A stretch of 32,000 nt of DNA, taken from NCBI GenBank assembly GCA_963699255.1, contig OY969425.1:1290001-1322000 (forward strand), in the 5' to 3' direction. The notes below the pieces were generated by a model. It saw nothing but the letters and a program-made list of their open reading frames with translations, was not told the DNA's origin and ran no database searches. Made by a program: the position numbers and the translations under genes. Origin of the DNA: an uncultured bacterium (lineage in GTDB: Bacteria > Margulisbacteria > WOR-1 > CAVSGV01). Every line of letters starts with the position of its first letter. The first letter of the stretch is position 1. Positions 782 to 18,907 of this stretch are shown here, piece after piece.

Positions 782-1204
782 TTAAATAAACCTCTTATCC
801 AAGCCATTTATTGATTGTTGCTTGATATATCTTGAAATAGCCAAGATGTTATTTTGCTCGATTTCTTCAGCATAGTAAGACCTCCCCCAAAGTTTTCTAT
901 ATTCATATCGATTTGTGTTGAAGCGTTCAAAGAATCGTTTCGAAGAAATCCCTTTTATTACTCTCATCACATAATCAATGCGATGGCTTCTTTCAAACTC
1001 TATCAACAGGTGGACATGATCTGATACAATATGACAACTAATAATACAAAATCCTTTAGATATCGATATTTCTTTGAAGGAATCATATAAGAATCTTACA
1101 GCAACTTTATCAATAAGCACCGGTTTGCTTTTATATGTTCTGAATACAAAATGATAAACAATCATTGTTTTGTTGGAACCGAGGCTTTTAGCCTCAGGTT
1201 CCAT
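782..1204 (-). CDS. tnpA: IS200/IS605-family Y1 (HUH) transposase TnpA, possibly a REP-associated (RAYT-like) form
   Basis: YHFVFRTYKSKPVL N-terminus, HUH motif DHVHLLI, KGISSKRF, catalytic-Tyr block LWGRSYYAEE, RYIKQQ. Start is ambiguous: ATG 1204 (GAGGA 9-13 nt upstream), ATG 1165 (typical IS200 N-terminus MIVYHF) or the tracked ATG 1270. Confidence 0.85.
   Translation of the reverse strand: MEPEAKSLGSNKTMIVYHFVFRTYKSKPVLIDKVAVRFLYDSFKEISISKGFCIISCHIVSDHVHLLIEFERSHRIDYVMRVIKGISSKRFFERFNTNRYEYRKLWGRSYYAEEIEQNNILAISRYIKQQSINGLDKRFI
1175..1202 (+). repeat. REP-like bulged hairpin, type B (inner stem GAGGCT/AGCCTC)
   Basis: GGAACC GAGGCT TTT AGCCTC A GGTTCC: 6+6 bp stem with bulged A. It lies at or over the 5' end of tnpA, inverted relative to 680-706. 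Confidence 0.65.
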
Positions 1205-1282
1205 GGTCTTTTCCTCTTTTCCATTTTCCTGCATTCCCTGCTCCCCGGACTTGTTGCCTAACTTTCCCATATTTCCTCTTCC

Positions 1283-2432: not shown

Positions 2433-2449
2433 TAGCAATTCTCATGCCA
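2433..2449 (-). promoter_or_regulatory. sigma54 (-24/-12) promoter upstream of the secretin gene
   Basis: Minus strand reads TGGCATGAGAATTGCTA, i.e. TGGCAYG-N4-TTGCW with GG and GC correctly spaced. 16/17 identical to 16512-16528. Confidence 0.6.
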
Positions 2450-4510: not shown

Positions 4511-5863
4511 CTATTTATTGATGTCGATGAATTTGGGAAGAGAGGGTCTGGGCATGCCCGCGCCAAGGATCTTTCCGTCCCTCATTACAAGCCTGCCTGA
4601 CACGATGGTAGCGGCTGCGGCTCCCTTCAGCTTCCATCCGTTATAAGGGGAGTTCCTGCTCTTTGAAAGGAACAATCCGCTGTCAACGATAACGGGTTTG
4701 TTCAGGTCGATGATCGTCGCGTTCCCCGGATATCCTACCTTGAAAGTCCCCGTCCTGCGGGAGAGCACCTTTGCAGGGTTGCATGTGAGTTTTTCGATTA
4801 CCTTGCTCAGCGTCAACACGCCTGAATCAACAAGTTCGGTAAGCGCCAGCGGCAGCGCGGTCTCCAGCCCAACAATGCCAAAAGCAGCATAATTGAATTC
4901 CACTTTCTTTTCTTCCATAAGGTGCGGAGCGTGATCGGTGGCGATCACGTCTATTGTGCCGTCCTTGAGCCCTTTTACTATGGCCTTTACGTCCTCTTCC
5001 GTCCTTAGCGGCGGGTTCATTTTCGCGTTTGTGTTGTAGCCTTCCACTTCGCCTTCCGTTAAAGTGAAATAATGCGGCGCGGTCTCGCACGTAACATTTA
5101 TCCCTTTATCCTTTGCCCTTCTTATTATCTCGACCGAACCCGCGGTGGAAACATGGGCTATGTGGACCTTTGAATTGAATTCCTGCGCGAGGGCGCAGTC
5201 CCTCTCGACCATCGATTCCTCGGCGGCTTTCGGTATCCCCTTAAGCCCCAGCACTGTCGACATGTACCCTTCGTTCATGACGCCGCCCGCGGACAGGTTC
5301 GAGTCCTCGCAGTGGGATATAATGACCGCGTCGAACTGTTTTGCGTATTCAAGCGCCCTTCTCATCACCTCCGCGTTCATTATGGGGTGTCCGTCATCCG
5401 AGAAAGCCACTGCTCCCGCGTCAAGAAGAAGCCCCATCTCCGCCATTTCCTCGCCTTTCAATCCTTTCGTCACGGCGGCGACAGGCATAACGCCAACAAA
5501 TCCTTCGCTCGTAGCTCTTGAAATGATATATTCAATTACGGAGGGGGTATCCGCCACGGGATTCGTATTCGCCATGCACGCGACCGCAGTAAAGCCTCCT
5601 GCCGCAGCAGCCATGGTCCCGGAAGCGATGGTTTCTTCCTCCTGCAGCCCCGGATCCCTCAGATGGCAGTGCATGTCGATGAGCCCCGGAGTAACGATCA
5701 ATCCTTTTGCGTTGAATACTTCACAGTCCCTGGATACGGTTTTTGAGAGGTTGCTTGATACGGCGGATATTTTTCCGTCAATTATCAGGATATCGATCTC
5801 GCGGTCCATCCCCTGCCCGGGGTCTATGACCCTGCCCTCTTTTATTAAGATTGACCCTGTCAT
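4511..5863 (-). CDS. pyrC: Dihydroorotase
   Basis: Amidohydrolase HxH motif DMHCHLRDPG, later ATDHAPH, 450 aa. ATGA overlap with the rnc stop. Confidence 0.9.
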   Translation of the reverse strand: MTGSILIKEGRVIDPGQGMDREIDILIIDGKISAVSSNLSKTVSRDCEVFNAKGLIVTPGLIDMHCHLRDPGLQEEETIASGTMAAAAGGFTAVACMANTNPVADTPSVIEYIISRATSEGFVGVMPVAAVTKGLKGEEMAEMGLLLDAGAVAFSDDGHPIMNAEVMRRALEYAKQFDAVIISHCEDSNLSAGGVMNEGYMSTVLGLKGIPKAAEESMVERDCALAQEFNSKVHIAHVSTAGSVEIIRRAKDKGINVTCETAPHYFTLTEGEVEGYNTNAKMNPPLRTEEDVKAIVKGLKDGTIDVIATDHAPHLMEEKKVEFNYAAFGIVGLETALPLALTELVDSGVLTLSKVIEKLTCNPAKVLSRRTGTFKVGYPGNATIIDLNKPVIVDSGLFLSKSRNSPYNGWKLKGAAAATIVSGRLVMRDGKILGAGMPRPSLPKFIDINK

Positions 5864-9185: not shown

Positions 9186-9728
9186 TTACTTCATCGCTTC
9201 AAGTGCAGTTACGAATTTATTAATGAACGCCTCTCTATTATTCGGGCCAGAGCTCTCTACTACGTCCTGTCCACCGGGCAACATTTCTCCATTACCACCC
9301 GGAAAATATTGCACGCACACACCGAAAGTAGCTCTCACATGTTCAGCTACCTTTTTTTCGATCTCTTTCACAACATCAGCATACCCTGCGTCAGATGGGT
9401 ATATTGGCTTATCGCTGCCGACAAGATCCCTCGAACTGATGGCGCCTGTTTTCAGGTTTATCGTCGCTATTTTACCAAGCTCCACAGTATCGCTTACACG
9501 TTTAAACAGAACCGCAGGCCGATGGGCATCTTCTTTATAATATAGCAAGAATGTATCGGTGGACACCAGATTTTTTTCCTGATCGGTATATGTAAAAGCA
9601 TTATTAAAGTATTTTTTGACTATTTTTGCGTCATATTTTTTAGGTTGCTCCACCTTTTTCATTTTTGCAAGGGCGACTGAAGCTGAATCCCTGACGCTTC
9701 CTATCGAATCCGTTCCATTTATGCTCAT
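9186..9728 (-). CDS. Hypothetical protein carrying the shared IGSVRD N-terminal module
   Basis: Start moved to ATG 9728 (AAGGAGGAAG 5 nt upstream). N-terminus MSINGTDSIGSVRDSASVALAKMKK parallels the ankyrin protein upstream. Ends in EAMK. Confidence 0.6.
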   Translation of the reverse strand: MSINGTDSIGSVRDSASVALAKMKKVEQPKKYDAKIVKKYFNNAFTYTDQEKNLVSTDTFLLYYKEDAHRPAVLFKRVSDTVELGKIATINLKTGAISSRDLVGSDKPIYPSDAGYADVVKEIEKKVAEHVRATFGVCVQYFPGGNGEMLPGGQDVVESSGPNNREAFINKFVTALEAMK

Positions 9729-9826
9729 TTTAACTTCCTCCTTATGACACACGCTTTTCCATACCGTATATCGAGGTTTCTCTAGAGGGATTTCTATTTT
9801 GAAAGAAACTCGATGTGGTAGAGTTT
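9729..9826 (-). promoter_or_regulatory. Upstream block, copy A (paralogous to 10595-10690)
   Basis: Shares TTCCTCCTTAT, ACACGC, TATATCG, GGA(T/A)TTTC and TTTTTAC in the same order with copy B. Confidence 0.4.
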
Positions 9827-10594
9827 TTACTTCATAGCCTTTCTTAATATATCCGCTGCAGCAACACACATGTCCCCCCCACTGGATGAGGTCTCTGAGT
9901 GTGATATGCCTGACAGCGCAACATGTAAAGCATCATCTCCATAATCGTTTATCATTTTTACATCTGCCCCCGCCTTAAGTAAGATTTTTATTGCTTCGGC
10001 CTGTCCCTTCCATGCGGCTTCCATTAAAGCAGTCCACCCATCATATTTTTCCGCGTTTACATTTGCTCCCTTAGCAATTAAAGTTTGCATAATATCAACA
10101 TTTCCACCCGAGGCGGCTGCCATTAAAGCGGTCCATCCATTATTGTCTGTTGCGTTCACATCTGCTTTTGCATCAACTAAGATCTTCGCGAGATCGCCAT
10201 AACCTCTTTTCGCAGCCCCCATTAATGCGGTTTCGCCGTCGTCATTATCTTTCGCGTTTACATCTGCTCCCGCAGCGATCAATGCTTTTATGACATTGAC
10301 ATGACCATTCCCCGCAGAATACACCTGGAAAGTAAATGCTCCTGTCGCATACATCAAAACAGTACATCCCAATTTATTGCGGGCGTTTACATTAGCCCCC
10401 GCGGCTATTAATGCTTTTACTTTTTTAAAATCGCCATTACTTGCGGCTTCCATTAACGGGGTAATGCCATAGCTTTTATTAAACAAAACCTCGTTTTTAT
10501 CAGCCTTTTCCGTTTCCTTTATTTTTGCAGGAACAACTAAAACTGAATCTCTTAAAACTGTATCTCTTACACTTCCTATTGCTGTCATTTTCAT
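9827..10594 (-). CDS. Ankyrin-repeat protein with IGSVRD N-terminal module
   Basis: Five to six ANK repeats (G.TALM.AA..G....L..GA.VNA). N-terminus MKMTAIGSVRDTVLRDSVLVVPAKIKE. RBS TAAGGAGGAAATG. Ends in KAMK. Confidence 0.8.
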   Translation of the reverse strand: MKMTAIGSVRDTVLRDSVLVVPAKIKETEKADKNEVLFNKSYGITPLMEAASNGDFKKVKALIAAGANVNARNKLGCTVLMYATGAFTFQVYSAGNGHVNVIKALIAAGADVNAKDNDDGETALMGAAKRGYGDLAKILVDAKADVNATDNNGWTALMAAASGGNVDIMQTLIAKGANVNAEKYDGWTALMEAAWKGQAEAIKILLKAGADVKMINDYGDDALHVALSGISHSETSSSGGDMCVAAADILRKAMK

Positions 10595-10738: not shown

Positions 10739-12293
10739 AATAATAATCTTGCAGCGCTTTGACGCCGAAACCCTTTTTCTTCGCGGCTTCAATGCCGTTG
10801 ACCGCCGCCTGGGCACCGGAGATGGTCGTGATGAGCGGGATCGAGTGTGCATAAGCCCCTGCGCGGATCGATATCTCGTTCTGTTTCGCCCTCTTTCCTG
10901 AAGGCGTGTTGATTATCAGTTTTATGCCGCCGTTCTTGATAAGATCGGCAATGTCCGGGCTGCCTTCGCCTATCTTAAAGACCCTTTTTACTTCAAGCCC
11001 GCTGTTTTTCAGCATGTCGCATGTCCCGTGGGTAGCGATAAGCGAAAACCCGAGGTCAGAAAGTTTCTTTGCGATGAAAACCACCGATCTTTTATCCTTG
11101 TTCTTAACGGATATGAAAACTTTCCCTTTCAGCGGGAGATTTTGCCCCGCGGCGATCTGGCTCTTCATGAAGGCCGACCCGAAGTTATCGTCTATCCCCA
11201 TGACCTCGCCGGTCGATTTCATTTCGGGGCCGAGGACAGGATCAACTCCGGGGAACCGCACGAACGGAAAAACGGCTTCTTTCACCGACACGTGCTTCGG
11301 GACCACCTCGCCTTTTATTCCAAGCTGGTCAAGCGTTCTGCCGAGCATGACCTTCGTGGCGAGATTTGCCCAGGCGACGCCGGTAGCCTTTGAAACGAAC
11401 GGCACCGTTCTTGAGGCCCTTGGGTTCACTTCCAGCACATACACGATATCGTTCTTAACGGCGAACTGGATGTTCATCAGGCCGATGACGTTAAGTTCTT
11501 TCGAAAGCGCGTGAGTATTATCCCTTATCCTGTTAACCAGCTCTTCCGAGAGCGAGAACGGCGGGAGCGCGCAGGCAGAATCCCCGGAGTGGATCCCCGC
11601 TTCCTCAATGTGCTCCATTATCCCGCAGACTACGGTCCTTTTACCGTCGGATATCGCGTCGACGTCCACTTCGATCGCGTCCTCGAGGAATTTGTCGATC
11701 AGGACCGGCCTCTCCGGCGATGCCCAGACGGCCGCTGCCATGTACTCGTCCATATCGCTGTCATCATAAACCACCTTCATCGCGCGTCCGCCCAGAACGT
11801 ATGACGGCCGCACAAGGACGGGATACCCGATCTCCTTCGCGGCTTTGTGCGCCTCATCGATAGTGACCGCAGTGCCGGAATCAGGCTGGACCAGATCGAG
11901 CTTTTCTATCAGTTCCTTGAAAAGCTTCCTGTCTTCCGCCCTGTCGATCGACTCCGGGGACGTGCCAAGTATATGCACTCCGGCTTTCATAAGCGGGATA
12001 GCGAGGTTCAAGGGCGTCTGCCCTCCGAACTGGACTATCACGCCTATGGGCTTTTCCTTATCGATGATTGCAAGGACGTCTTCGCGGGTCAGAGGCTCAA
12101 AGTACAGCCTGTCGGAAGTGTCGTAGTCGGTGGAGACCGTTTCCGGGTTCGAATTGACCATTATGGAAACATATCCTTCTTCCTGGATGGCGTAGGACGC
12201 GTGTACGCAGCAGTAATCGAATTCAATGCCCTGGCCGATCCTGTTAGGACCGCCGCCTAGGACAACGACTTTTTTCTTTGCTTTCTTTGCCAT
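10737..12293 (-). CDS. carB: Carbamoyl-phosphate synthase large subunit, C-terminal half only (second ATP-grasp + MGS-like domain)
   Basis: [27 protein letters not shown] matches the start of the second CarB half. C-terminal allosteric domain [12 protein letters not shown]...IINTP. Start moved to ATG 12293 because 12310-12338 forms a promoter. Confidence 0.85.
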
Positions 12294-12309
12294 TTGATAG
12301 ACCTTTGCG

Positions 12310-12338
12310 ATTTTACCTGAAAATCGGGGTAAAGGCAA
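12310..12338 (-). promoter_or_regulatory. sigma70-type promoter of the carB half-gene
   Basis: Minus strand reads TTGCCT-N17-TAAAAT, then 16 nt including AAAGG before ATG 12293. Confidence 0.45.
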
Positions 12339-12363: not shown

Positions 12364-13725
12364 TTAATTTTTAGCTGTATATATGGGCGCATTCGCGTAA
12401 GCAGTTTTGCCGTAAGGGATCTGGGTGATTATCCTCCCCTTGTTGTCGCAAATAATGGACGGGCCTGTGTTCCCGACATGAATGCCGTACATATCGTTCT
12501 CGATTGCCCGAAATACCATCGACGCGGTGTGTATATACGGTACCATTGAATTCCCGAATGATGCATCAGTAGAAATACAGACCAGGATTTTTGCTCCGGA
12601 TTTAGCAAGTCCACGGGCTACCTGAGGGCAAATTGATTCAAGACATATCATAGTCCCAATATTATGCAAAGCTGTTGAGCTTGGTAAAGTCACATGCCCA
12701 TTGCCTCTAGAGAGCCATTGCGTTTCAAAGAATGGGAATATCATATTTTTTCTGTAGGGCTCTGTTGTGTCCCCGTCAGTTTTAAGGATGAAAGCTATAT
12801 TGAATTTCTTTCTGTTGCTGGAATAGTCTATATATGTTGTTCCAATGAGCAGTTCAGCCCCTTTTGAAGTTATGCCCTTATGCAGACCTTCAAGGTATTC
12901 ATCATTTTGAAGAATGTAATCCCCCGCGAACTCAGGCCAGATAATAAGTTTTGGTTGTTTTTTTAAAGAATCTATCGAAATATCGGCCAGTTTGTTCTTC
13001 AAAAAGCTTTTATAAAATTTGTTTCTTTCTGCTAATGCGTAATCCCTTGAAGAAGTATTCGTCTGAATAATGACCACATCTACCGGCTTACCATTGTTTT
13101 GGGCAGAATGAAGCGACAAATATCCGTAACCAAGGTTCACAGAATGAACGATTAGCAATATCGAAAGCGATATTATCAGCGTTCTTTTATCCTTCCTCAC
13201 AAAGACGTTAGCAAGAAGTGCATTTGTAAATATGATAAGGAATGCAATGAAACATGAGCCAAATATTCTTACCGACTGTATTATTATTGGGAATTGAACA
13301 AGCGATGTTTCAATAGGAAATGGAAACGCAAAATGTATATTTGCCAATAAATAATAAAGTAAAACCCATAATGCCCCAAAGAAAAAGGGGCTTAAGCTCC
13401 AGCCGTATCTATCTGAAAGAGAGGCGGCAACTGAAAATATAATTGCACCAAAAGTACCAATAACTAGAAATACTGTAACCAGCCAGAAAGTATCTGGGTA
13501 TAATATACATATTAACTTGGCGGCATCTAAAGGAACAAGCAAGATTATTGCAAAAAGTTCCCAGAATAATAGGTTTATAAAGAAACGCTGCCAACCGAAA
13601 TATCTTTGGTTTAGCATTAAAAGTGGTACAAAACCAATGAATATACCGAGCGGAAAACTTGCGATTGGATTAGGCATTGATGCAAGGGAAAGAATTAAAC
13701 TTAGAAAAAATAGAAAGAGTTGCAT
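12364..13725 (-). CDS. lnt: Apolipoprotein N-acyltransferase
   Basis: N-terminal polytopic membrane part, then CN-hydrolase triad context IIWPEFAG (Glu), YRKNMIFPFFE (Lys), MICLESICP (Cys). Start probably MQLFLFF at 13725. Confidence 0.8.
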   Translation of the reverse strand: MQLFLFFLSLILSLASMPNPIASFPLGIFIGFVPLLMLNQRYFGWQRFFINLLFWELFAIILLVPLDAAKLICILYPDTFWLVTVFLVIGTFGAIIFSVAASLSDRYGWSLSPFFFGALWVLLYYLLANIHFAFPFPIETSLVQFPIIIQSVRIFGSCFIAFLIIFTNALLANVFVRKDKRTLIISLSILLIVHSVNLGYGYLSLHSAQNNGKPVDVVIIQTNTSSRDYALAERNKFYKSFLKNKLADISIDSLKKQPKLIIWPEFAGDYILQNDEYLEGLHKGITSKGAELLIGTTYIDYSSNRKKFNIAFILKTDGDTTEPYRKNMIFPFFETQWLSRGNGHVTLPSSTALHNIGTMICLESICPQVARGLAKSGAKILVCISTDASFGNSMVPYIHTASMVFRAIENDMYGIHVGNTGPSIICDNKGRIITQIPYGKTAYANAPIYTAKN

Positions 13726-13726
13726 A

Positions 13727-14863
13727 TTAGTACTTCGGATTGACTGAGATTCCTTGATAATTCCCATAGAATCTCTTTATGATTTTATCAGTCTTTGTAT
13801 CAAGTACTAATAATTCAGGGGCAGATGATGTTGTCTCGTGCATAAAGGATGGCCCTTTGGTCATATATAATTTACCAGGTGCTACAACTGAGAACATTAA
13901 CTGTGATTTCACCTCAAATGAACCAATAACCTTATCTGTTAATGTACTAATAACCTCAACGTTATTTTGCTCTTCAAAATCATCTCTTCTGTGAAGGACA
14001 TATATCTTATTAACTGATTTATCATATGTAACCCAGAATGGGTGAGGGCTTATTGGTATCTTTTTAATAAGCTGCCCATTTTTAAGCGAGAATACCAGTA
14101 TCTCTCTGTTTGATTTATGCCTGCCATTATTATACTCTGGGAATTTATTTGTAGCAGCAGCTATATATATCTTATTGCCAACACTGCATACCCCAAAAAG
14201 GTTTGTATAATCTTTAGGAACTTCAATTATCTTAACAACTTTTTGGGTGGTTACATCAACAACAATAATACCCCCAAAATCTGTTAAGTCATCAAGAGAC
14301 GTATGAGGGGTATTTGAATTGATAAAATCACATGTAACAAAATACGCATATTTATCCCCATCAAATGTCATAGTAAGAACTTCAACGGAACGGTATAACG
14401 GGTCATCTTTTCTAAAATATATCTTCTTAACAATTTTTTTGTTCTTTCTACCGATAATGACCACACCTCCGAACCCCCGTGTTTCATCAAAACTCTCAAC
14501 CTGAACAATTAAATAATCTTTTGTTAACGATATGTAATGAGGCCCAAATGCTGAGCCAAGGTCCTTGTATCCACTAATCTTATTTTTTTTGGGGTCGTAA
14601 TAGTATATTTTCCTGCCATAATCACTAATATAATAATAGTCGGTTATAAAGCACCCGCCGTTCTCATCAACCACCATATCATTAAACGCGTTATGATGAG
14701 GAAGCTCTATTTTTCTTGCTATTTCATTTTTAGTGGTGTCGAATTGAATAAGATATTCTGGTTCATTAGGGTTGAATCTAAGGGCATAAGCATATTCGTC
14801 GGCAAAGGTAGGGTATGAGAACATTAGTAATATTGGTAATAAAAAAAATAATTTTTTCCTCAT
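13727..14863 (-). CDS. Secreted beta-propeller-like repeat protein
   Basis: Signal peptide MRKKLFFLLPILLMFSYPTFA. Recurring blades of the form ..KIY(V/I/Y)....D..T.K.I..I. Confidence 0.5.
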   Translation of the reverse strand: MRKKLFFLLPILLMFSYPTFADEYAYALRFNPNEPEYLIQFDTTKNEIARKIELPHHNAFNDMVVDENGGCFITDYYYISDYGRKIYYYDPKKNKISGYKDLGSAFGPHYISLTKDYLIVQVESFDETRGFGGVVIIGRKNKKIVKKIYFRKDDPLYRSVEVLTMTFDGDKYAYFVTCDFINSNTPHTSLDDLTDFGGIIVVDVTTQKVVKIIEVPKDYTNLFGVCSVGNKIYIAAATNKFPEYNNGRHKSNREILVFSLKNGQLIKKIPISPHPFWVTYDKSVNKIYVLHRRDDFEEQNNVEVISTLTDKVIGSFEVKSQLMFSVVAPGKLYMTKGPSFMHETTSSAPELLVLDTKTDKIIKRFYGNYQGISVNPKY

Positions 14864-14892
14864 AACACCTACCTTTACCTTTTTCTCAACAT

Positions 14893-15828
14893 CTATAGAT
14901 TGGACGACCAATCGAAATCGTATGCTAGTGCTGGTGAGAAGTACACATTATCTGGCGAAACACCTATCCAGCTGAACAAATAGTTGCCAGGTGCTGTATC
15001 GCGCAGTTTTGAAGCTGAGCCCACGGATGTTCTTCTGGTGTTCAAATCTAGATATGGCCTGAAAGTGTTCCACACCAGTTTAGAACAATACATGGAGCTT
15101 AGGTCGTTCTTGTCGCACCATTTAATGACAAAGCTGACTAAGGTTTGACCGGTTTGCACCTTTGGCAGATATGGCAGATTCTGATATCCTGCTACTCCCT
15201 GTTGAATCGCTGCATATTTCTGGCTTGAAGAAAGCCCGTTTATGCGTTTACAGGTATAATAACCAAAACCCGACCACTGGTCTGGAACTTTATGCTCCAG
15301 TACCCCGTTATCCAGTGTTGAATCAAAAATTTGATTTTGATTTGGGTCTGTTACAATAACAACATGTGTCCAGCTTGTAAAGAATTGAGCGAAGGTGTTC
15401 ATTTTGTCATCGCCACGGGTAAAGATTAGGTCTCCTGCGGAAAGGTCACCTCTATACCTATTCCAATCAAAAGGATTATTCTGGCCACTTTGCCAGTTAT
15501 AGCATATATGTGTACTGTCAATTTTGAAATTGGATGGATGGGCCTTTATCTGGGCGGAGATCCAGTTATTCTTTGACGCACATAAGGAATAGTCTAAAAG
15601 ATAAGGTAAGTCAACATATGCATTGCTTGGTGGGCTTGCGTTCTCAAAATGAAAACGTTCATTATCCCTTATATAGCCTCTTAAGTCTTCGAAGGAATAA
15701 TATGTCGGCCCCGAACTGCCTCCACCACCACTATCACCGTAAGGGCCTGTCGAAGTTGCGAATGAAATGGCCGGGGATAAAAGAAGTGCCACAAGCATAC
15801 AAACGAAAACAATATTCAATCTTTTCAT
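14893..15828 (-). CDS. Secreted permuted papain-fold (NlpC/P60 superfamily, YiiX/YaeF C92-like) amidase
   Basis: Signal peptide MKRLNIVFVCMLVALLLSPAISFA. Permuted order GDLIF..WTHVVIV (His)..MYCSKLVWNTF (Cys). Upstream AGGAGG overlaps the previous stop. Confidence 0.6.
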   Translation of the reverse strand: MKRLNIVFVCMLVALLLSPAISFATSTGPYGDSGGGGSSGPTYYSFEDLRGYIRDNERFHFENASPPSNAYVDLPYLLDYSLCASKNNWISAQIKAHPSNFKIDSTHICYNWQSGQNNPFDWNRYRGDLSAGDLIFTRGDDKMNTFAQFFTSWTHVVIVTDPNQNQIFDSTLDNGVLEHKVPDQWSGFGYYTCKRINGLSSSQKYAAIQQGVAGYQNLPYLPKVQTGQTLVSFVIKWCDKNDLSSMYCSKLVWNTFRPYLDLNTRRTSVGSASKLRDTAPGNYLFSWIGVSPDNVYFSPALAYDFDWSSNL

Positions 15829-15843
15829 CACTTTATCCACCTC

Positions 15844-16482
15844 CTACTGCGTAATACTCCCGACAAAATCGTTCATCTTATCAACCGGAATACTTACTGA
15901 TTCAGCGCTTGCCGTCCCGTCATCTCCGGAAACAAGCGTATAACCAACGACCGAGGCTTCGAGCGGCGTCATGCCAGGGTTATTGTCGGGATTGATGTTC
16001 GGCATAGAACTCTCAACGGCCGTCTGAACTTTTGAAACAATATCATCATCAACCTTTACCCCTCCTGAGGCCCCTAGAGCGTTGATATTGTCGGTTATTG
16101 TTCCTACATCGACTAAAGAGGCAGCATCACTGTTATCATCCGAACAAACACTACTGCCCACTTTCCTCGCTAGTGCTTCTTTTTTAGCTATCTTCTGTAA
16201 TACAGCCGGGCTTAAAAGAGCACCAAGCGATTGGACCGTTGTGCCGGAAGCGGACTTATCCAGCCTTGATCCCACATATCCTACGAATGAATTAACCGCG
16301 TTTCCCGCGCTGGCCTCGTCGCTTATCGCGCCAAGCTGCTTATTGAATTCCCTAACCTGCGGATTATTCGCTTTCGATATAAATGTCTTTTCAGTCACAT
16401 CTCCCCTCGTTCCTGTCATCTGGCCGCAGCCGCTGACCAAAAAGACCAGAGCCATACAGATCAACAAAATAACATATCTCAT
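15844..16482 (-). CDS. Hypothetical lipoprotein
   Basis: MRYVILLICMALVFLVSGC lipobox. RBS GAAAAGGAGGTG. Gly/Ser/Asp-rich mature part. Confidence 0.65.
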   Translation of the reverse strand: MRYVILLICMALVFLVSGCGQMTGTRGDVTEKTFISKANNPQVREFNKQLGAISDEASAGNAVNSFVGYVGSRLDKSASGTTVQSLGALLSPAVLQKIAKKEALARKVGSSVCSDDNSDAASLVDVGTITDNINALGASGGVKVDDDIVSKVQTAVESSMPNINPDNNPGMTPLEASVVGYTLVSGDDGTASAESVSIPVDKMNDFVGSITQ

Positions 16483-16511
16483 TTTTCACACCTCCTTTTC
16501 GGATATAGACA

Positions 16512-16528
16512 TAGCAATTTTCATGCCA
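16512..16528 (-). promoter_or_regulatory. sigma54 (-24/-12) promoter of the lipoprotein-amidase-propeller-lnt operon
   Basis: Minus strand reads TGGCATGAAAATTGCTA. The GC element sits about 32 nt upstream of ATG 16482. Confidence 0.6.
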
Positions 16529-16618
16529 TTAGGATTTGCTCGCTAAATTGGGAATGGGGCATGAAATTGTCGTAGTTTTCTTCGATAGTTGCTGTTTGTT
16601 TCGACACTCATAAAGCGC

Positions 16619-16646
16619 TTGACAATGGTGTCACTTCTTTTATACT
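16619..16646 (+). promoter_or_regulatory. sigma70-type promoter of nikR
   Basis: TTGACA (16619-16624)-N16-TATACT (16641-16646), then 10 nt to ATG 16657 with no SD. Confidence 0.55.
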
Positions 16647-16656
16647 TCGTGTTACC

Positions 16657-17076
16657 ATGTCAAAGTTAGAGCGGTTCGGCGTATCGATGGAGCAGGAACT
16701 CCTTAGTAAATTCGACTGTCTCATCGATGACAAGGGTTATGCCAACAGGTCCGAAGCCATAAGGGACCTCATAAGGAACCTGATCGTCGAGGAGAACGCG
16801 AAACTGGGATCAAAAGAGGTCATTGGCACCATAACCATCGTCTATAGCCATGACATCCACGACCTGAATGACTCGCTTAACCATATCCAGCATCATTTCC
16901 ACGACCAGATAATCTCCACTGTCCATGTCCATCTGGACGAGCACAACTGCATGGAAGTGCTTATTGTCAAAGGGAAAGCAAATAACATCAAGCAGATCGC
17001 CGACAAGCTGATAAGCATAAAAGGCGTGAAACACGGAAAGCTGACGATAACAACAACGGGAAAGGAGCTAAGATAG
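16657..17076 (+). CDS. nikR: Nickel-responsive regulator NikR (RHH + ACT-like metal domain)
   Basis: [29 protein letters not shown] ribbon-helix-helix. His-rich metal site [18 protein letters not shown]. Confidence 0.9.
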
Positions 17077-17105
17077 AGATGAGAGATGTGAGATGCGAGA
17101 TGCGA
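17076..17105 (+). repeat. GAGATGN heptamer array (4 units), left partner
   Basis: GAGATGA GAGATGT GAGATGC GAGATGC GA. Overlaps the nikR stop and the start of the next ORF. Confidence 0.6.
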
Positions 17106-17864
17106 GGTATTTGGTCCCGATCCATAGGAATATCCTTCCTTGTTGTGTCATTGTTAATTGTTAATTGTTCATTGTGCTACGCTACCCGCCCGCTTTATAC
17201 GGAGGACACGCTTATAGTCCCGGTAAGAAGCGTCATCATAGATTCAGGCAGCCTCCTGCAGTCACAAAGGGATAATTCCGGATTCCAGGAGGTCATCACA
17301 TCGGCAAGGTACGGAATAAGCAATAACGCAGAGATATCTCTCACCCTGCCTTTCATCAGCAGGCAGGCGGAAGGCGGGAACTTTGACGGCCTCAGCAACG
17401 GTATTTTCAACGTTAAATACGATTTCTTTTCGAGCGGCGACGGGAAAATGTCGGCCGCATACCTGTTCGGCATCCAGCTCAAATCCAGCGACAGGGGAAA
17501 CGGCCTGAACGCGGATGAGAACGACATAACTAATATGCTCATTTTTTCGCAGGATGTGGGCCTGTTCACGTACCTGCTCAATTTCGGATATACTTTTGAC
17601 GATGAACGCGCGGGCCAGCCGCAGAATGACTTCATACTTTATAACGCTGCAATAGTAAAACCTTTGAATGAAAATATGAACCTCACGGCCGAGATACAGT
17701 ACAGCAAGAACACTTACACCTTGGACATTTTCGGCGAAACCGCCGTTGGCGTCAATTATCGGCTATTTCCAAAACTCACACTTGATGCCGCGCTCGGTTG
17801 CGGACTTAACGAGAATTCGTCCAGCTCCAACTTTGTTTGCGGCTTAACTTATCAGCTAATATAA
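17079..17864 (+). CDS. Putative outer-membrane beta-barrel protein of the nickel cassette
   Basis: Signal peptide (MRGIWSRSIGISFLVVSLLIVNCSLCYA from ATG 17100, or ATG 17079). Alternating beta-strand pattern. Ends GLTYQLI. Family assignment not verifiable by eye. Confidence 0.5.
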   Translation: MRDVRCEMRGIWSRSIGISFLVVSLLIVNCSLCYATRPLYTEDTLIVPVRSVIIDSGSLLQSQRDNSGFQEVITSARYGISNNAEISLTLPFISRQAEGGNFDGLSNGIFNVKYDFFSSGDGKMSAAYLFGIQLKSSDRGNGLNADENDITNMLIFSQDVGLFTYLLNFGYTFDDERAGQPQNDFILYNAAIVKPLNENMNLTAEIQYSKNTYTLDIFGETAVGVNYRLFPKLTLDAALGCGLNENSSSSNFVCGLTYQLI

Positions 17865-17880
17865 AAAGGAGAAAAAGAAA

Positions 17881-18612
17881 ATGCATATACCGAACGGCCT
17901 CCTTGATCCAAAAGTTTCCGCCGGCACCGCTTTTGCCGCAGCCGGAGTGCTTGGCTATTGTTTTGCTAAAGTGAGGCAGGCGCTTTCGGCGATCGTCCCT
18001 GAATCCGTCCTTGCAGGAGCCGGCAATATCGGCTGCACCATAACCGAGGGTTCCAAGAAATTGATCTCAAGTTTTGCGGAAAACCACATCATGAAAATGG
18101 GTGCCATTGCCTCCCTGATATTTGCGGCGCAGATGTTCAACTTTCCTATCAACAGCGGAACGTCGGGGCACCTTCTTGGGGGGGTCATAGCGGCTATCGC
18201 TCTCGGGCCTTTTTCCGGAGTTATTGTAATATCCGCCGTGCTGGCGGTCCAGTCTATTTTCTATGCCGACGGCGGCCTTATGGCGCTTGGCGCGAACATT
18301 GTGAACATGGCTGTTATCGGCACGCTTGTTTCATATTATATCTACTTTCTTATCCATAAACTGGTAAAGTCCGATTCCGGTCTCTTCCCGGGCGCAGGAA
18401 TAGCCGCTTTCTTTTCGGTCGTTCTTGCATCTATAGCATGTTCCTTTGAAGTGGCATTATCAGGCACGATCGAGCTCGGGAAAATACTGCCTGCGATGGT
18501 ATCGGTACACGCGAGAATAGGGATCGCCGAGGCCTTGATCACGATCATTGCCATCAATATCCTGAAAAATATCAAATTCGGGCTTGATGGCAAAGTGAAA
18601 AATGAAGAATAG
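17881..18612 (+). CDS. cbiM: ECF-type Ni/Co transporter substrate component NikM/CbiM
   Basis: N-terminus MHIPNGLLD (the MHIPDG-type metal-binding N-terminus), 6-7 helices, RBS AAAGGAG. Confidence 0.85.
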   Translation: MHIPNGLLDPKVSAGTAFAAAGVLGYCFAKVRQALSAIVPESVLAGAGNIGCTITEGSKKLISSFAENHIMKMGAIASLIFAAQMFNFPINSGTSGHLLGGVIAAIALGPFSGVIVISAVLAVQSIFYADGGLMALGANIVNMAVIGTLVSYYIYFLIHKLVKSDSGLFPGAGIAAFFSVVLASIACSFEVALSGTIELGKILPAMVSVHARIGIAEALITIIAINILKNIKFGLDGKVKNEE

Positions 18613-18907
18613 GACCATACTTATCATTATCCTGATCTCGATCGCAGTCGCGGTACTTGCCGGGTTCTTTGCGTCATCGCGTCCAGACGGGCTCGAAAAG
18701 GTAGCCGGCAATCTCAAGTTCGAAGGGAAAGCTGTCTCAACGCCCGGCCTTTTTGTGGATTACACGATATCGATCATCCGCAATCCCTCATTTTCCAGGG
18801 CGTTGGCCGGGATAATAGGGATTGTGTTCATTATTTTTATTTTCAGATCGATCGCCAGGGTAAAACACTTAGGGGAAATATTAAAAAAGCTTCTGAATCT
18901 CCGTTGA
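18602..18907 (+). CDS. PDGLE-domain small membrane protein (NikN/CbiN-position partner)
   Basis: Literal motif SSRPDGLEKVA after an N-terminal helix, plus a second C-terminal helix. 11-nt overlap with nikM. Confidence 0.7.
   Translation: MKNRTILIIILISIAVAVLAGFFASSRPDGLEKVAGNLKFEGKAVSTPGLFVDYTISIIRNPSFSRALAGIIGIVFIIFIFRSIARVKHLGEILKKLLNLR

Follow-up and report, generated by a model that had tools for sequence, protein, structure and literature searches.

A sigma-54-type operon of Margulisbacteria that links a YiiX-like enzyme and a lipoprotein to apolipoprotein N-acyltransferase

Introduction

The secreted S. aureus protein LnsA caps a membrane partner and supplies the Cys-His part of a lipoprotein N-acyltransferase, which takes its acyl chain from the sn-1 position of phosphatidylglycerol (PMC7387801, PMC13559823). 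Lnb of Bacteroides, a DUF4105 protein, is likewise a lipoprotein N-acyltransferase (PMC11573676), and it is reported to be displaced by apolipoprotein N-acyltransferase (Lnt) in equivalent genomic contexts (PMC11573676, PMC12994826). E. coli YiiX was crystallised with a fatty acid in its hydrophobic S1 pocket, its authors proposed that it cleaves fatty-acid-peptide amides "such as lipoproteins", and a related protein, YaeF, is a lipoprotein in its own right (PMC3142127). Tox-Act1 and TseH have been identified as phospholipases (PMC12994826). We describe here a predicted operon in which an enzyme of the YiiX type is found together with Lnt. It lies within a stretch of 32,000 nucleotides (contig OY969425.1, positions 1,290,001 to 1,322,000; referred to below, at its full length, as the window) from an uncultured bacterium of the Margulisbacteria, the phylum that is sister to Cyanobacteria, and it encodes a lipoprotein, a secreted Peptidase_C92 enzyme, a secreted beta-propeller and Lnt behind a promoter of the sigma-54 type. 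A preliminary description of the window had suggested that these genes form a conditionally expressed module for the remodelling of lipoproteins or of the envelope. Our analysis supports this suggestion as the best reading, and we assign a probability of roughly 0.55 to the interpretation that this is an enhancer-dependent operon for conditional change in the acylation of lipoproteins or of the envelope, by a chemistry that is predicted to be of the YiiX type.

The locus may be compared with each of these systems in turn. The C92 enzyme, like LnsA as the latter has been described (PMC7387801, PMC13559823), is a Sec-secreted permuted NlpC/P60 protein with a Cys-His dyad, the closest structure to which is YiiX. 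We propose a further likeness, namely that it would act on lipoprotein N-termini at the outer membrane face together with a membrane-bound partner. The partner in our case, however, is predicted to be a lipid-anchored, all-alpha lipoprotein that is sometimes fused to the enzyme, whereas LnsB is a CPBP-type integral membrane protein, and no CPBP or Abi match to Pfam was found among the four products. The operon also differs from LnsAB in containing a canonical Lnt and a beta-propeller, and its activity is predicted from its genes. Lnb resembles the C92 enzyme in being a permuted NlpC/P60 protein, one that acts on diacyl lipoproteins. In contrast to the displacement reported for Lnb, the permuted enzyme and Lnt co-occur in this operon and do not replace one another; moreover the C92 enzyme has no DUF4105 match, Peptidase_C92 being the sole Pfam report at E ≤0.1. 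Finally, the enzyme has the same fold as YiiX, YaeF, YebB and B. cereus BcPPNE, with the same permuted order of His and then Cys and a conserved Tyr, but it differs from them in its extra N-terminal domain of ~90 residues, in what appears to be an obligatory lipoprotein partner, and in its linkage to the propeller and Lnt.

Organization and conservation of the operon

Four consecutive open reading frames (ORFs) occupy positions 12364-16482 on the minus strand of the window, and their coordinates are collected in Table 1 with those of the other features discussed below. The AGGAGGTG ribosome-binding site of the C92 gene overlaps the stop codon of the lipoprotein gene, 29 nt separate the C92 gene from the ATG of the propeller gene, and at the junction of the propeller gene with lnt the sequence reads TAA-T-ATG, a gap of 1 nt. 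The four genes had been described as tightly packed on the minus strand, and the ORF coordinates together with these junctions bear this out.

Table 1. Positions in the window of the operon, of its promoter and of related features.
Feature	Position	Strand	Remarks
Sigma-54 type -24/-12 promoter TGGCATGAAAATTGCTA	16512-16528	-	46 nt 5' of the lipoprotein ATG; from pattern match and conservation
Candidate activator-binding site (upstream activating sequence, UAS) TATCG-N10-CGACA	16568-16587		~40 nt 5' of the -24 element; one mismatch to the palindrome TGTCG-N10-CGACA
ORF 1	15844-16482	-	Lipoprotein, 212 aa
ORF 2	14893-15840 (315 aa); likely ATG 15828, giving 14893-15828 (311 aa)	-	Secreted Peptidase_C92 enzyme
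ORF 3	13727-14911; likely ATG 14863, giving 13727-14863 (378 aa)	-	Secreted beta-propeller
ORF 4	12364-13767; likely ATG 13725, giving 12364-13725 (453 aa)	-	Lnt
carB C-terminal half	10737 to about 12293-12338	-	Residues ~546-1057 of the carbamoyl-phosphate synthase large subunit; NF003671, 769 bits
Second sigma-54 type promoter TGGCATGAGAATTGCTA	2433-2449	-	5' of the secretin gene 1283-2377

Related loci were obtained from contig look-ups for clusters of the C92 and lipoprotein families and from species-representative genomes that were scanned with the C92 alignment, and the genes were mapped on them by tblastn. Leaving aside a duplicate of the window, ten loci contain the complete set. The order lipoprotein-C92-propeller-Lnt was found in nine of these loci (L002, L003, L007, L008, L010, L011, L012, L013 and L016). 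In L014 and L015, where the proteins are 24-33% identical to those of the window, the order is Lnt-lipoprotein-C92-propeller, with gaps of 15-26 nt, so that linkage has been kept although the order has changed. L021 presents a further variant: a single ORF of 580 aa contains the lipoprotein domain with a lipobox, LGSSGC, followed by the C92 domain, the propeller gene and lnt come next, and the stop and start codons of these genes overlap. The set is thus syntenic in relatives through a changed order and a gene fusion, and this part of the preliminary description stands.

Both families are rare, the C92 family comprising 38 clusters in 5.8 billion proteins and the lipoprotein family 39 clusters. 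Nearly all of the named records belong to Candidatus Margulisiibacteriota, WOR-1 or Marinamargulisbacteria; one record labelled "Zixiibacteriota" is a contig of 2 kb. These distributions mark the four-gene set as a system that is conserved in Candidatus Margulisiibacteriota. The metagenome-assembled genome KT_bin-0310 contains three separate C92 loci (L018, L020 and L022), two of them with a propeller gene, and the system can therefore be present in multiple copies in some Margulisbacteria relatives.

The YiiX-type enzyme and the lipoprotein

The product of the second gene matches Peptidase_C92 (PF05708) with 28.6 bits, compared with a gathering score of 27. It consists of a signal peptide, a Gly-rich linker, a conserved N-terminal domain of ~90 residues (YYSFEDLR...) and the catalytic domain, and this N-terminal domain is also kept in the fusions of lipoprotein and C92 enzyme that are described below. 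His155, Tyr220 and Cys248 are invariant in 33 C92 sequences, and the position of the His before the Cys is the permuted order. The family profile matches E. coli YiiX (2if6) with an E value of 2e-5, and the catalytic residues align to the YiiX motifs. When an AlphaFold2 model of the enzyme (pLDDT 85) was compared by Foldseek with 350,000 Protein Data Bank (PDB) chains, the only matches were YiiX (2if6) and BcPPNE (3kw0), with E values from 6e-7 for 2if6 to 8e-4 and an identity to YiiX of 18%. The Pfam score, the profile match and the fold match together confirm the earlier identification of a permuted papain-fold, YiiX-like enzyme, and the alignment confirms the presence of its Cys/His pair. 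It had also been suggested that this is an acyl- or amide-handling enzyme, an idea that fits the literature on YiiX, LnsA and Lnb (PMC3142127, PMC7387801, PMC13559823, PMC11573676). In a clade without lnt in the cluster, represented by P0018 (L006, 8001-8891) and P0019, the C92 enzyme has a lipobox of its own, LLLTAGC, in place of a plain signal peptide.

The lipoprotein begins MRYVILLICMALVFLVSG-C, a signal peptide that ends in the lipobox LVSG-C19, and no match to it was found in Pfam, NCBIfam or PADLOC. On both counts it deserves the name of novel lipoprotein that it had been given. The lipobox Cys is present in 16 of 16 orthologues; in an alignment of the family G18 and C19 are invariant and the motifs TPLEA and SGDDG are evident. 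An AlphaFold2 model with a pLDDT of 74 consists of a disordered tether (residues 1-35) followed by an eight-helix domain, for which there was no match in the PDB either by Foldseek (best E 1.9) or by profile.

A search of 1.84 billion representative proteins with the lipoprotein profile returned only 83 relatives, and these proved informative with respect to the relationship between the first two genes. About 18 of the 83 have a length of 550-680 aa and contain the lipoprotein domain N-terminal to C92, at residues ~10-215; when long relatives were tested against Pfam, seven of eight had a Peptidase_C92 match in their C-terminal part. Between one such fusion, P0216, and the window enzyme there is 30% identity along an alignment of 188 residues (E 4e-19), in which the motifs WTH, SSMYCxKLV and IGVxxDxIY are kept. 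The recurrence of this natural fusion is strong evidence that the lipoprotein and the C92 enzyme function together as a single physical entity, and the most likely part of the lipoprotein is then that of a membrane-anchored partner of the enzyme, and not only that of a substrate. The preliminary description had spoken of a dedicated lipoprotein; its link to the enzyme is upheld, and the fusions make the part of an anchored partner the more likely one for it.

The propeller and Lnt

The third product has a type I signal peptide, a partial Pfam match to MRJP (33.9 bits, gathering score 19.8) and a weak NCBIfam match to YncE. A profile built from 13 propeller orthologues matches the YVTN surface-layer propeller of Methanosarcina (1l0q) in three stretches with an E value of 2.9e-12, and also matches YncE and Lp49 with E values of ~5e-4. 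The signal peptide and the match to 1l0q agree with the secreted beta-propeller that had been proposed.

The fourth product exceeds the cut-off of the TIGR00546 equivalog (171.4 bits against 132.9) and matches CN_hydrolase with an E value of 5e-21. In an alignment with P. aeruginosa Lnt (5n6m) its motifs WPE, YRK and ICLE coincide with the catalytic motifs, and we take them, from what is established for Lnt, to be the Glu-Lys-Cys triad. These scores and the intact triad motifs support the assignment as apolipoprotein N-acyltransferase. Hydrophobic segments are present in the N-terminal part, where Pfam LNT_N gives 17.7 bits and does not reach its gathering score of 27.1. From its hydropathy the protein ends directly after the nitrilase domain, with no C-terminal transmembrane helix; the 509-aa orthologue of L007 possesses such a helix, and short Lnts of ~452 aa exist in other lineages also. 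Among the best 120 of 315 Lnt homologues, those of the cluster type form a separate group of ~35 (≥40% identity, E <1e-74); after a gap, the other Lnts among the matches listed are at most 32% identical to that of the window. No second lnt on the 1.77-Mb source contig was found among the same best 120 of 315.

The textbook reason for the N-acylation of lipoproteins is their sorting by the Lol pathway. The preliminary description regarded Lnt as normally a housekeeping enzyme, a premise that is weak in Margulisbacteria, in that Lol has been reported to be practically absent from Terrabacteria (bioRxiv 10.1101/2021.05.31.446380). Margulisbacteria are Terrabacteria, so that constitutive expression of Lnt is not a necessity in these organisms, and its conditional control would be less of a paradox. 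The comparison with the Lgt-LspA-Lnt pathway of Proteobacteria is instructive in this respect. The two Lnts are alike in that ours passes TIGR00546, keeps the Glu-Lys-Cys triad and has an N-terminal domain that is predicted to be polytopic. It differs, however, in its location behind a sigma-54 promoter, in its predicted translational coupling to three envelope proteins, in the lack of a C-terminal transmembrane helix and in its membership of the separate clade described above, and a housekeeping role would not be expected for it in a lineage reported to be without Lol (bioRxiv 10.1101/2021.05.31.446380).

A conserved -24/-12 element

Genes concerned with the exterior of the cell are commonly under the control of sigma-54 (PMC3162934). 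The operon promoter reads TGGCAT-GAAAA-TTGCT at 16513-16528, which is one mismatch from the consensus TGGCAC-N5-TTGCW. When up to one mismatch was allowed, two matches to this consensus were found in the window, compared with 0.66 expected, and 7 of 100 shuffled sequences reached two. From the window alone the match could be due to chance and the case is a weak one. Comparison with related loci is more decisive. A GG-N10-GC element of the form YGGYW-N6-TTGCT is located 5' of the first gene in all nine of the close-clade loci that were fetched (L002, L003, L006, L007, L008, L010, L011, L012 and L013), at a distance of 43-150 nt, or of ~330 nt in L012. A relaxed pattern has 16 matches in 336 kb when both strands are considered, and of these nine are the operon-promoter sites and seven are others. 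The intergenic DNA that surrounds the element, judged by eye, shows little other similarity between loci. Because the element is conserved across loci, the promoter match is real beyond chance.

Further, in L006 and L007 the cluster is directly preceded by a gene for an activator of the NtrC type, a response regulator in which the domains Sigma54_activat and HTH_8 are combined, and in L007 a 7TM-GAF histidine kinase gene stands beside the activator gene. The conservation of the element in nine of nine close-clade loci and the adjacency of an activator in two of them bear out the -24/-12 promoter that had been placed before the operon. A -24/-12 element, TGGCAATAAATTTGCT, is present in L007 at 5706-5721 (+), just 5' of the NtrC-type activator gene, and suggests sigma-54 autoregulation of this activator adjoining the cluster.

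The candidate UAS of Table 1 approximates a palindrome of which the 24 loci contain just two exact copies, one in L008 (7239-7258) and one in L013 (9237-9256). Both copies are in the same place relative to the promoter, ~40 nt 5' of the -24 element. L008 and L013 are close relatives, and the palindrome is offered here as a candidate activator site only. Matches to internal sigma-70 promoters and to terminators were at or below the shuffle expectation and are uninformative.

A proposed mechanism and its alternatives

We propose that the four products act as one system at the periplasmic face of a membrane. A signal would cause an NtrC-type response regulator, bound upstream, to activate sigma-54 RNA polymerase at the -24/-12 promoter, and all four genes would then be transcribed and their translation coupled. 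Lnt would transfer an acyl chain from a phospholipid to its catalytic Cys and from there to the alpha-amino group of diacylglyceryl-Cys lipoproteins, among which the operon's own lipoprotein would be included. The latter would hold the YiiX-type enzyme at the membrane surface. This enzyme would form an acyl-thioester on Cys248, with His155 as the partner residue, and would carry out a second acyl transfer or a hydrolysis, either on the lipoprotein anchor or on the phospholipid or lysophospholipid of the Lnt reaction. Candidate reactions are O-deacylation to the lyso-form, N-deacylation, further acyl transfer and the clearance of lysophospholipid. The propeller would serve as a non-catalytic binding partner, and the net effect would be a shift, under certain conditions, in how lipoproteins or the envelope are acylated.

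A more specific version of this scheme may be offered tentatively, as an idea that we think rather unlikely to be correct in all its parts. The system might be an acyl-editing machine, in which Lnt adds the N-acyl chain and the anchored YiiX-type enzyme removes or moves an ester-linked chain or adds another, to give a lipoprotein chemotype (for example a lyso-form or an extra-acylated form) by an undescribed route, under a two-component/sigma-54 switch, in a diderm lineage without Lol. If this were true, the bacterial YiiX clade would for the first time have a physiological substrate.

The operon ties an enzyme of the YiiX clade to Lnt and to a lipoprotein partner by linkage, by rearrangement and by fusion, and thereby makes the guess that was offered for YiiX a testable one. 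It also appears that an enhancer-dependent promoter controls Lnt in this uncultured phylum of diderms, in which sorting by Lol may not be the reason for N-acylation. Innate recognition of lipoproteins by TLR2 is governed by their acylation state, which also affects the stability of the envelope, and for this reason new acylation-editing enzymes would be of general interest.

Several points weigh against the interpretation of a conditional acylation operon. To our knowledge no substrate has been demonstrated for the bacterial enzymes of the YiiX clade, for which there have been structures since 2006. No sigma-54 activator gene was found in the 32-kb window. The distant-clade loci, L014-L023, contain no convincing -24/-12 element, and sigma-54 control would therefore be a trait of one clade and not of the whole system. 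That the genes give rise to a single transcript, and that this transcript depends on rpoN, are predictions from the sequence, and the roles assigned to the lipoprotein and the propeller are suggested by fusion and linkage. L006 possesses the activator and the lipoprotein-C92-propeller trio with no Lnt in the cluster. Lastly, a writer and a hydrolase encoded by the same operon could cancel each other's work, unless they acted one after the other.

Most characterised bacterial NlpC/P60 enzymes are, as is well established, peptidoglycan hydrolases (PMC7387801), and it may be asked whether the trio performs some unrelated processing of the cell wall, the S-layer or a surface polymer by an amidase, with Lnt being the lineage's only, general-purpose enzyme and linked to the trio for lipoprotein maturation. 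By sequence and by fold, however, the C92 enzyme is a member of the permuted YiiX clade and not of the canonical P60 clade; permuted members have hydrophobic S1 pockets of a lipid type, and all those that have been characterised act on acyl chains (PMC3142127, PMC12994826). The surface-layer protein that is the nearest solved match of the propeller would accord with this alternative, as would the retention of the trio without Lnt in L006, an apparently small genome and the finding of no second lnt on the source contig among the matches listed. If Lnt were linked simply as a maturation dependency, it would be unusual for the linkage to survive a change in gene order and a fusion variant at 24-33% identity, as it has done. 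We consider this alternative doubtful, and prefer the conditional acylation operon.

The remaining alternatives appear much less probable. It is improbable that the -24/-12 match is non-functional, that transcription is of the sigma-70 type and that the arrangement has no regulatory meaning. The frequency of the match in the window relative to shuffled sequence and the lack of the element in the distant clade are what such an explanation would lead one to expect, and sigma-70-like hexamers do occur inside the block, at chance frequency; it does not account for an element that is found at the same place in nine of nine close-clade loci amid otherwise little similarity (by eye), or for the sigma-54 activator gene that adjoins the cluster in two of them. 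More improbable still is a toxin-immunity pair, in which the C92 enzyme would be secreted to attack lipids as a phospholipase, in the manner of Tox-Act1 or TseH, and the lipoprotein would confer immunity to it in the periplasm. Toxins of the permuted NlpC/P60 type are known whose immunity proteins are membrane-associated (PMC12994826), and the C92 enzyme has a signal peptide and a lipoprotein gene adjacent to its own. In the close-clade loci examined, however, the cluster is present in a single copy among the housekeeping genes for NikR, CbiM and carB, with no secretion-system or polymorphic-toxin genes beside it, and there were no PADLOC matches. The co-conservation of Lnt and the propeller also argues against a toxin, and the putative toxin and immunity domains are fused in ~18 families, which is implausible for such a pair. 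A defence system was considered as well and was rejected for the lack of PADLOC matches.

Composition of the block and its flanking genes

The block had been described as conspicuously AT-rich, and both of the GC counts that were quoted in support proved to be exact (18/60 at 13261-13320 and 36/60 at 11521-11580). Region 12364-15840 has a GC content of 38.1%, compared with 46.7% for the whole window, and the twelve 1-kb windows of lowest GC in the 32 kb are all within 12.8-14.9 kb. The propeller gene has 34% GC (31% at third codon positions, GC3) and lnt 38% (GC3 37%), and the adjacent carB half has 54% (GC3 68%). In the loci of relatives the four genes are near the mean GC of the locus, in most cases slightly lower, and the AT-richness is most readily seen as a trend in composition that is specific to these genes in the source genome. 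Recent horizontal transfer was considered as its source and is disfavoured, as relatives with 36-54% C92 identity keep the same flanking genes, namely NikR and CbiM at one end and the carB half at the other. As these flanks are conserved in several loci, the block looks like a long-conserved feature of the chromosome rather than a recent import.

The carB gene is split. A stand-alone half-gene is also found in L002, L003, L008 and L013, and the N-terminal half is not in the window. A search of the ~70-nt gap that follows lnt found no terminator-like site on the minus strand, so that read-through from the operon into the carB half is possible. In relatives other genes, some of them on the opposite strand, stand between carB and the cluster, and from this arrangement we judge that the carB half is not part of the conserved unit.

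Divergent from the operon, at 16657-18907 (+), are nikR (213.7 bits), a gene for a 261-aa protein with no family match, a CbiM-like gene, named from the Pfam CbiM match of its orthologues in relatives, and a gene for a small membrane protein; this unit looks like one for nickel or cobalt uptake. The nikR promoter, TTGACA-16-TATACT at 16619-16646, is within the same 174-nt intergenic region as the sigma-54 promoter and the candidate UAS.

The secretin promoter and other features of the window

The second sigma-54 type promoter of the window, TGGCATGAGAATTGCTA, is identical to the operon promoter at 16 of 17 positions, and on the basis of this resemblance it had been suggested that the secretin gene and the operon share a regulon. 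The identity was confirmed, and both promoters are of the sigma-54 type. A shared activator was not supported: no upstream motif common to the operon and secretin promoters was found, and the secretin leader holds only a CTGCGACA half-site, located downstream of the promoter and inside a hairpin. The resemblance of the two promoters implies that both use sigma-54, and not that they share an activator. A perfect hairpin, GGAAACC-N17-GGTTTCC at ~2390-2420, is present in the secretin leader. The secretin gene itself is short (364 aa) and stands alone, with an IS200/Y1 transposase gene, 782-1270 (-), immediately downstream.

An ankyrin-repeat protein of 255 aa and a neighbouring protein of 227 aa, which is of unknown family, are encoded by the two ORFs at 9186-9869 (-) and 9827-10594 (-). 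They have a similar N-terminus, IGSVRD... followed by a Lys-rich segment, and this common stretch could be a targeting or secretion signal.

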